Shown here piece by piece: positions 8,689 to 9,736 of a stretch of DNA of 34,514 nt (position 1 is the stretch's first letter; each line of letters begins with the position of its first letter). The notes under the pieces were generated by a model, which was given only the letters and a program-made list of their open reading frames with translations, was not told the origin of the DNA and did not search any database. The position numbers and the translations under genes were made by a program. Origin of the DNA: Escherichia phage Chuche. Location of the stretch: sequence record PP925824.1; one strand, given 5' to 3'.

Positions 8689-8720
8689 GGTATCCCCATC
8701 CATAAGCAATAGGCATAACA

Positions 8721-8758
8721 GATCGATGTAATAAATCCGATCGATAAAAACGATCGAT
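8721..8758. promoter_or_regulatory. Cluster of three GATCGAT repeats (three Dam GATC sites) upstream of com
   Basis: GATC at 8721-8724, 8739-8742 and 8752-8755, each within gatcgat; lies 45-80 bp upstream of the com start. Confidence 0.4.
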
Positions 8759-8802
8759 TTGCTATCATATCGGCAGCAGTAACCACACAAGAGGTGCCGC
8801 AA

Positions 8803-9000
8803 ATGACGCAAAATGTACGATGCAAAAATTGCAACAAACTACTTGCCCGCGCCTCATTTCACTACATTGAAATAAAATGTCCGCGCTGCAAAACACTTAA
8901 CCAGATAACGAGAGCCATCGAGCACCCCACACACATGAGGAGTTATGACCGTGGGGATCGCAATCCAGCACCAACCAGCACATACACCGGAACACACTAA
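8803..9000 (+). CDS. com: Com-like zinc finger translational regulator (Mu Com family)
   Basis: MTQNVRCKNCNKLLARASFHYIEIKCPRCK closely resembles Mu Com (RCKNCNKLL...HIEIRCPRCK); ATG at 8803 with SD agaggtg; overlaps the start of the downstream methyltransferase as com overlaps mom in Mu. Confidence 0.75.
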   Translation: MTQNVRCKNCNKLLARASFHYIEIKCPRCKTLNQITRAIEHPTHMRSYDRGDRNPAPTSTYTGTH

Positions 9001-9736
9001 GGTTTATCAGACTGACAATGCCACGCTCTGTCGTGGGAATGCGCTGGAAATATTGCCGCTGATTGAGCCAGAAAGTATTGATGCCTTAATTACTGACCCG
9101 CCTTACAGTTCGGGCGCGACACACAAGGCCGGACGCACCAACCAGGGCAGCCACGCAAAATATTTGAACGGCGAGAACCTCCATCGCTTTGATGGGTTTG
9201 CGGGTGAAAACATGGATGCCCGTTCGTGGGCTTACTGGACACAATTATGGATGGCACAGGCACACCGCGCAGTCAGGCCGGGCGGTTATGCCCTGGTATT
9301 TACTGACTGGCGACAACTGCCAGCTTTAACCGATGCGTTTCAGGCCAGCGGTTTTACATGGCGTGGAATCATTGCGTGGAACAAAGGAAGGGGGTCACGA
9401 ACACCCCATACGGGGTATTTCCGGCATCAGTGCGAATACATCGTCTGGGGCAGTAAAGGCCATTTAGGTAAATCGCCTTCGGGACCGTTCGACGGCTGCA
9501 TGACGTTCCCGGTTATCCCATCAAAGAAAATGCACCCGACCGGAAAACCAGAAGAACTTATGGCAGAACTGGTCAGGACTGCGAATAGTGGTGGAACAGT
9601 CCTTGATCCTTTTATGGGATCGGGAACAACGGGTGTTGCAGCACTGAAAGCAGGACGCAAATTTATTGGTATAGAAACCAGTGATCATTATTTTGATGTA
9701 GCAACACAACGGCTCAAAACGGCGATCGAACCATAA
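8945..9736 (+). CDS. DNA methyltransferase, N6-adenine/N4-cytosine family (beta class, DPPY motif)
   Basis: 263 aa; motif IV DPPY near the N-terminus and motif I DPFMGSGTTG near the C-terminus (beta permutation); SD gaggag upstream. Confidence 0.85.
   Translation: MTVGIAIQHQPAHTPEHTKVYQTDNATLCRGNALEILPLIEPESIDALITDPPYSSGATHKAGRTNQGSHAKYLNGENLHRFDGFAGENMDARSWAYWTQLWMAQAHRAVRPGGYALVFTDWRQLPALTDAFQASGFTWRGIIAWNKGRGSRTPHTGYFRHQCEYIVWGSKGHLGKSPSGPFDGCMTFPVIPSKKMHPTGKPEELMAELVRTANSGGTVLDPFMGSGTTGVAALKAGRKFIGIETSDHYFDVATQRLKTAIEP

Follow-up and report, generated by a model that had tools for sequence, protein, structure and literature searches.

The window analysed here, the complete 34,514-nt genome of Escherichia phage Chuche (PP925824.1), belongs to a P2-family phage of the P88/Xuanwuvirus type, and at the att-proximal end of the prophage lies com, a gene for a Com-type zinc-finger protein, followed by a gene for a beta-class DNA methyltransferase (features are listed in Table 1). 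We consider it likely, at a probability of roughly 0.7, that these two genes form a self-contained operon under two-level control of the phage Mu com/mom lineage, with the product of the second gene acting as an adenine methyltransferase. A preliminary description, made from the sequence alone, had proposed a Mu com/mom-like architecture in which a methyltransferase replaces Mom, and this is supported by four components that have counterparts in Mu, namely Com itself, its RNA operator, a translation-inhibition hairpin and an upstream GATC cluster. The resemblance at these four levels reflects homology rather than analogy. The operon is a well-preserved copy of a known Com-gated DNA-modification control circuit and not a new kind of system, and the Mu activator C is no part of this version of it.

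The Com protein matches the Pfam family Zn_ribbon_Com (PF10122) at 9.5e-12 (44.6 bits, curated cut-off 22.9) and the PHROG family 'gpCom control of modification' at 2e-17. Identity to Mu Com is 51-60%, and the invariant cysteines align with those of the Mu protein. The com gene is preceded by a ribosome-binding site, AAGAGG, at 8789-8794, and it overlaps the methyltransferase gene by 56 nt (for a start at AUG 8945) or 50 nt (for a start at GUG 8951); these family matches and this overlap bear out the initial proposal that a Com-type zinc-finger gene runs into the start of a DPPY methyltransferase gene. The same com reading frame is annotated by NCBI in E. coli RM8988 (2055-2252 of locus L086), where it carries the product name 'Com family DNA-binding transcriptional regulator'. 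That name is probably wrong, since experiments have shown Com to be a translational activator that binds RNA (PMC6483171, PMC3378877).

The start of the methyltransferase gene lies within the predicted translation-inhibition hairpin, which encloses the ribosome-binding site GAGGAG (8937-8942) together with both candidate start codons, GUG 8951 being in the stem and AUG 8945 in an inner helix (8934-8938 with 8943-8947). Folding of the methyltransferase initiation region had been suggested as a check, and it shows the start codons to be sequestered, at -13.2 kcal/mol for the hairpin alone versus -6.8 for its Mu counterpart. The inhibitory stem sequence is common to Mu (CCCAC/GUGGG, with the GUG start in the stem) and to com loci whose cargo is Mom or a C5-methyltransferase. 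By analogy with Mu, and because it lies 8 nt from the ribosome-binding site, GUG 8951 is the likelier start of the methyltransferase; AUG 8945, at which NCBI annotates the start, is only 2 nt from that site.

Adjacent to the inhibitory structure is a putative Com operator hairpin, whose loop and closing pair, CC-AUC-GAG, fit the Com recognition motif CC(N)2-3GAG. This motif was derived by systematic evolution of ligands by exponential enrichment (SELEX) and footprinting as 5'-CC(N)2-3GAG-3' in a hexaloop closed by a C-G pair (PMC6483171), and in Mu the Com-binding hairpin adjoins a translation-inhibition structure that has within its stem the GUG at which mom starts (Nowacka et al.). We examined a sample of loci encoding Com relatives, 80 on viral contigs (within L001-L084) and 80 in genomes (L089-L168). 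All loci of the first set, and most of the proteobacterial ones in the second, have a [4 bp]-C-N2-3-GA-[4 bp] hairpin 13-52 nt past the CPRC codons; this pattern has a background rate of 0.0025 per nt. Outside the enterics two copies often stand in tandem, about 22 nt from each other, and the hairpin is absent from the Firmicutes Com-like loci L140, L150, L152, L160 and L166. When 42 distinct operator hairpins were aligned (MAFFT, with five-base loops padded with N), compensatory changes were found in all four stem pairs and 45 cells had changed on both sides; the covariation score was reached by none of 500 shuffles, and sliding the partner column destroys the pairing. An Rfam scan returned no family covering either the operator or the inhibitory hairpin, the sole relevant match being a sub-threshold sok beside hok.

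The methyltransferase open reading frame (8945-9736) matches PF01555, N6_N4_Mtase, at 3.5e-33. Its motifs stand in the beta-class order, DPPY near residue 51 and FMGSGTT near residue 222, and among solved chains it comes closest to DpnA- and CcrM-type adenine methyltransferases (1e-20). It is probably an N6-adenine rather than a cytosine methyltransferase, an assignment that rests on the DPPY motif. The ratio of nonsynonymous to synonymous substitution rates (dN/dS) relative to its relatives is 0.07-0.13, indicating purifying selection. An anti-restriction role is a reasonable inference from characterised relatives. It is our conjecture that the enzyme is harmful and of broad specificity, which would explain a double gate; small beta-class enzymes with low specificity exist, M.EcoGII being one (PMC5778455). 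Published E. coli methylomes (PMC3893438, PMC4659465) were consulted for silence of the enzyme in lysogens, but the strains they cover could not be linked to this module; methylome surveys of lysogens may miss the methyltransferase if it is gated off.

The com gene differs from those of loci L008, L010 and L025 at 0-1 of 141 nt, and the synonymous divergence (dS) of the methyltransferase body is 0.18-0.28. A near-identical com beside a diverged methyltransferase suggests either that recombination has occurred within the operon or that com is under unusually strong nucleotide constraint. In two loci the methyltransferase is truncated, to 68 amino acids (aa) in L007 and to 99 aa in L024.

The three GATC sites upstream of com each lie within a GATCGAT repeat, and these repeats are found 82, 64 and 51 nt before the com ATG, which is close to the 45-80 bp at which the preliminary description had placed them. 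They are the only three GATCGAT copies in the window, a total at chance level (3.8 expected); the window-wide chance that three would fall within 40 bp is about 2.5e-5, and nowhere else in the window do three GATC sites lie within 60 bp. Their spacing of 18 and 13 bp is identical to that at Mu Pmom, upstream of Mu com (L004, positions 1089, 1107 and 1120), and the flanks are similar. The OxyR consensus ATAGnTnnnAnCTAT-N7-ATAGnTnnnAnCTAT was scored along both strands of the whole window (about 69,000 positions), and the three best scores start at 8709 (15/20), 8718 (14/20) and 8722 (14/20), all within 8709-8758, so that full-length registers of the consensus overlap here, one from 8709 and one from 8718/8722; by the same scoring the validated sites of Mu and agn43 reach 13 and 14. 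The 13-bp GATC pair is contained in a strong OxyR half-site, ATCGATAAAAACGAT, which agrees with 8 of the 10 consensus positions. Among the lineages examined, GATC clusters stand beside com in enterobacterial-type loci only and are absent in Pseudomonas, Stenotrophomonas and the others, which fits a mechanism based on host Dam and OxyR.

Two further observations concern GATC sites. The GATC-II/III segment of the agn43 regulatory region of E. coli K-12, atcGATCgtttatatcGATCgataag (L085, 334-360), is almost identical to acGATCgtttttatcGATCgataag, which lies upstream of com in Mu-like phages with a C5-methyltransferase (L046, L091). GATC is also depleted across the window, with 86 sites versus 122 +/- 11 in dinucleotide-preserving shuffles, all 100 of which had at least 86.

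The predicted sigma-70 promoter is the sole promoter-like site on the + strand in 8200-10100. GATC-2 falls in its -35 element and GATC-3 in its spacer, about 23 bp before the inferred transcription start near position 8775. All close relatives retain the extended -10 element, TGnTATCAT, even the alleles that have lost the GATC cluster. The C-dependent promoter of Mu (ACCACA, a 19-bp spacer, TAAGAT and a T-run) is absent upstream of com; the Mu segment with the spacer, T-run and TAAGAT has no counterpart here between TAACCACAC and the com ribosome-binding site. Searching the window by tblastn with Mu C and Mor gave a best E-value of 0.7, and no C or Mor homologue is encoded. A C-activated late promoter for com was rejected on these two grounds. 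With the Mu spacer and T-run segment gone and no C or Mor, the GATC/OxyR site comes to overlap the predicted -35 and spacer. The GATC sites, which the preliminary description likened to the Dam-sensitive region upstream of the Mu mom promoter, form a cluster with an OxyR match, but they overlap the predicted promoter and do not lie upstream of it.

Ogr-dependent late promoters of P2 carry TGT-N12-ACA about 55 bp before the transcription start. The window contains six such patterns (about 8 are expected per strand), none of them in 8600-8800 and none in the P-O intergenic region; since the pattern occurs at chance frequency and is missing where a late promoter is due, it is not diagnostic for this phage. 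One of the matches, at 8878-8895 inside the CPRC codons of com, occurs at chance frequency and is not conserved in Mu com; it would put a transcription start near the methyltransferase ribosome-binding site. Late expression of the operon is an assumption, and given the lack of a C-type promoter and of C and Mor, together with the operon's own predicted promoter, its late timing is unproven.

We propose that the operon works as follows. The OxyR-type site with its three Dam targets overlaps the predicted extended -10 promoter, and OxyR would bind there and repress transcription when the GATCs are un- or hemimethylated, whereas full Dam methylation would exclude it; this logic is taken from homology with Mu Pmom, agn43 and gtr. 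Com would be made from its own ribosome-binding site while the methyltransferase start stayed locked in its -13 kcal/mol hairpin. By binding the adjacent CC-AUC-GAG hairpin Com would open the lock, and the enzyme would be made only once Com has accumulated. The enzyme would then methylate adenines of the phage DNA, and unavoidably of host DNA as well, so that progeny would be protected from restriction in new hosts. The double gate would limit a potentially harmful methyltransferase activity.

Several points weigh against this reading. The promoter is a consensus match, and the scan gave 2 sites in the region where shuffled sequence would give 2.3. The consensus from which OxyR binding is inferred is a degenerate one. 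In this lineage the operator stem is weak, with an A.A mismatch and a two-pair core of only -0.5 kcal/mol, and forcing the full operator hairpin costs about 1.7 kcal/mol in folding. The 95.8% of operator stem cells that are paired is an inflated figure, because pairing was built into the pattern by which the hairpins were picked; this does not affect the covariation or the constancy of position. Given its good extended -10, the operon might already be expressed in ordinary Dam+ lysogens if their GATCs are fully methylated, which would fit poorly with a toxic enzyme. Finally, some natural alleles have lost one to three of the GATCs: in L010 the middle site is mutated (two left), in L090 (at about 1420-1450) the segment between the outer GATCGAT repeats is deleted and one GATC is left, and in L026-L028 a deletion between the outer repeats leaves none. 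All of these keep TGnTATCAT and an intact com and methyltransferase, which indicates that the Dam/OxyR layer is modulatory and not essential.

Other explanations of the upstream region must also be considered. The Dam/OxyR site could make the operon bistable in lysogens, as at agn43 and gtr, and so turn the prophage methyltransferase ON or OFF heritably, with Com as a second, threshold-setting gate. Cells would then be OFF with OxyR bound and the GATCs unmethylated or ON with the GATCs methylated, and only a subpopulation would have an altered methylome. We regard such an epigenetic phase switch as unlikely. The layout is gtr-like, with the 13-bp GATC pair in the OxyR half-site and GATC-3 about 23 bp before the inferred transcription start, and at gtr OxyR over the promoter gives the OFF phase (PMC2909390); in addition, no requirement for a phage activator is evident, and the operon is moron-like, with its own predicted promoter and flanking hairpins. 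The gtr study notes that it is not known whether mom expression phase-varies (PMC2909390). Bistability, however, needs finely balanced Dam and OxyR affinities, which is beyond what sequence alone shows, and ON cells would be sick if the enzyme were of broad specificity. Mu has the same GATC layout and is not known to phase-vary.

It is quite improbable, in our view, that OxyR has no part here and that GATC methylation itself alters RNA polymerase binding, as at IS10 pIN. Such a promoter would fire on phage DNA that is transiently hemi- or unmethylated in the course of rapid lytic replication and would give 'late' timing without an activator. GATC-2 and GATC-3 do lie inside the predicted core promoter, and Dam leaves fast-replicating phage DNA under-methylated (in phage lambda about 50% of the sites are methylated; cited in PMC3299994), but the region is the best OxyR match of the window, its spacing and flanks are like those of three validated OxyR/Dam sites, and the documented logic of Mu is the opposite one, in which expression needs methylation. 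We find it very improbable indeed that a phage protein (a repressor, Cox or an Ogr-type protein) uses the GATCGAT repeats as operators or that they are simply a recombination-prone repeat without a regulatory role, with Com perhaps a DNA-binding transcription factor. Direct repeats near promoters are typical of phage operators, the natural deletions do run between GATCGAT repeats, and the NCBI name for Com points the same way. The repeat layout is nevertheless common to Mu-like and P2-like phages with unrelated repressors and to the chromosomal agn43, which points to a host factor, while experiment makes Com an activator of translation that binds RNA (PMC6483171, PMC3378877) and its mRNA operator is conserved with covariation. 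The Com-gated operon under an OxyR/Dam site thus remains the reading that we prefer.

Comparison with the Mu com-mom operon is informative. The two share the Com protein, the overlap of com with the start of its cargo, a CC(N)3GAG operator loop (the Mu operator is AUGC-CUGCGA-GCAU), an adjacent CCCAC/GUGGG stem with a GUG start, three GATCs at 18 and 13 bp in GATCGAT-like contexts, and the stretch TAACCACAC. They differ in cargo, Mom being an acetamido-adenine modification enzyme and the enzyme here a beta-class methyltransferase, and in element, Mu being a transposable phage and Chuche a P2-family phage. Mu also has a C-dependent promoter with C and Mor, where here there is neither and the predicted promoter lies partly under the GATC cluster. 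From GATC-3 to the com ATG there are 51 nt here versus 78 nt in Mu (about 27 bp fewer), and this 'short' GATC-com layout is also found in Mu-like phages with Mom or C5-methyltransferase cargo (L003, L029, L046-L052).

A methyltransferase in place of Mom behind Com has already been published for FluMu, Pnm1, the Hia5 island and B3 (PMC3299994). There, com-like genes were found to be followed by adenine methyltransferases in the place of mom in FluMu, Pnm1 and the Hia5 island, B3 ORF47/ORF48 were also noted, and the Mu-like prophage enzymes behind com were described as toxic and of broad specificity, with Hia5, Hin1523 and Nme1821 nearly non-specific (Drozdz et al., PMC3299994). Like the operon described here, FluMu (HI1522.1/Hin1523), Pnm1 (Nma1821), Hia5 and the Pseudomonas phage B3 have a Com homologue that overlaps an adenine methyltransferase at the position of mom, and the operator-type hairpin comes in tandem pairs in B3 and singly in the Haemophilus loci. 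Their enzymes, in contrast, are Dam-like, with the alpha-class order (FxGxG before DPPY), and B3 has no GATC cluster upstream of com. In Stenotrophomonas phage Smp131, also of the P2 family, the Com homologue gp05 ('translational regulator') overlaps a beta-class methyltransferase, gp04, which is 48% identical to the Chuche enzyme over 231 aa, and two operator-type hairpins are present. The Smp131 module differs in lying beside the portal gene and not at an att end, in having no GATCGAT/OxyR-type cluster, and in the surroundings of the start codon.

The upstream region resembles agn43 and gtr in having GATC pairs in OxyR half-sites and an OxyR site that overlaps the promoter or transcription start. 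In agn43 the spacing is 19 and 13 bp and the 13-bp pair is GATC-II/III, like the three GATCs within about 35 bp here, and the gtr operons of Salmonella and P22 have GATC pairs 13 bp apart, as in the 13-bp pair here (PMC2909390). The layout of GATCs over the predicted promoter is nearer to gtr and agn43 than to Pmom. Those two systems differ in that their cargo is a surface protein or O-antigen modification and their phase variation is proven, whereas the present operon has a methyltransferase and a translational gate.

Other enzymes were also considered. The closest phage methyltransferase, that of Bordetella BMP-1 (52% identity), has no com upstream, and its gene looks frameshifted. M.EcoGII and M.EcoGI are, like the enzyme here, beta-class DPPY enzymes encoded by E. 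coli prophages; they are non-specific adenine methyltransferases, silent in lysogens and toxic when expressed (PMC5778455), and have 349 aa where the enzyme here has about 261-263 aa. Identity with M.EcoGII was considered, but the sizes differ (349 versus 263 aa) and its paper names no com gene.

In 126 complete E. coli genomes the entire module is matched at about 98% identity, and the regulatory region is found in 165 of 5,426 (about 3%), many of them Shiga-toxin-producing; the module is also present in Salmonella (L089, 93.6% identical). In E. coli both com and a 'DNA-methyltransferase' gene are already annotated by the NCBI pipeline. A megablast search against isolated phage genomes found no record covering the com-methyltransferase part, the hok part alone matching P88-like and Shiga-toxin (Stx) phages. 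Across the com loci (L001-L084, L089-L168) at least five unrelated enzymes stand behind Com: Mom, C5-methyltransferases, Dam-like alpha-class methyltransferases, beta-class methyltransferases of the type found in the window and in Smp131, and another alpha-like enzyme (L064). In the enterobacterial set the cargo changes right after the 'GUG GGN' of the inhibitory hairpin, and every cargo starts with Met-Gly. The single draft genome of Methylophaga thiooxydans DMS010 has at least 12 copies of one com locus (L098, L105, L110-L119), several of them exactly 446 bp from contig ends; they may reflect a transposable Mu-like prophage present in multiple copies, or else an artefact of assembly.

With regard to its genomic setting, the operon appears moron-like, with a predicted promoter of its own and a hairpin on either side, a terminator-like one upstream and a GC-rich one past the methyltransferase stop codon. 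The upstream hairpin separates hok from com, so that com needs a promoter of its own, and in relatives with a different upstream neighbour the homology to the window starts at about 8700. The hairpin past the methyltransferase was flagged by the scan on the - strand, and its + strand T-run is weak. In E. coli O145 RM8988, which has a copy in integrated form, the prophage genes end with the methyltransferase, the host gene flk comes next, and the probable att crossover lies near window position 9864, where homology to the integrated prophage ends. A hok/sok-type toxin module occupies 8281-8567, between ogr and com; its Rfam sok match (8281-8440) scores 45.7 bits, under the gathering score of 59, and P88-like phages have the module at about 95-98% identity, many Stx phages at about 83%. 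On the - strand at 31-765, bordering the tail gene block, is a gene for a glycosyltransferase that falls in the 'moron' category (PHROG 1962, 1.4e-84).

Table 1. Features of the com-methyltransferase region of phage Chuche and of its surroundings (positions in the window)
Feature	Position	Strand	Description
com	8803-9000	+	65-aa CxxC-N15-CPRC zinc ribbon, variable tail
Beta-class (DPPY ... FxGxG) DNA methyltransferase	8951 (or 8945)-9736	+	about 261-263 aa
Translation-inhibition hairpin, predicted	8925-8956	+	CCCCAC (8925-8930) with GUGGGG (8951-8956)
Com operator hairpin, putative	8912-8925	+	GAGC-CAUCGA-GCAC in mRNA, internal A.A mismatch
Sigma-70 promoter, predicted	8741-8768	+	-35 TCGATA (8741-8746), 16-bp spacer, extended -10 TGcTATCAT (8760-8768)
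OxyR-binding/Dam-target region, putative	8709-8758	.	GATC at 8721-8724, 8739-8742 and 8752-8755, each within GATCGAT (copies at 8721, 8739 and 8752)
Terminator-like hairpin and T-run	8654-8690	+	from terminator scan; 3' of hok, left limit of module
GC-rich hairpin	9741-9762	.	just past methyltransferase stop codon, right limit of operon
Tail genes	1088-6666	-	
gpD	6692-7933		
Ogr/Delta zinc-finger gene	7976-8236		
Hok/Gef toxin gene (hok)	8427-8567		Pfam HOK_GEF 4e-7; PHROG 'MokW-like host killing'
Integrase	10048-11067	-	followed by repressor and Cox-like gene

The Mu mom control circuit is thus not confined to one phage, and it also serves a P2-family prophage as a portable gate. More broadly, the unit made up of the operator and the inhibitory hairpin would be portable in its own right, with unrelated Mom, C5, alpha and beta enzymes swapped at the GUG-GGN junction. 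Were the unlikely heritable switch real, it would amount to a 'methylation switch controlling a methylase' and to a phasevarion that works without simple-sequence repeats. The locus offers a compact natural test bed for phase variation of mom-type Dam/OxyR control and for how Com melts the inhibitory hairpin, and the natural alleles with three, two, one and no GATC sites are ready-made controls.

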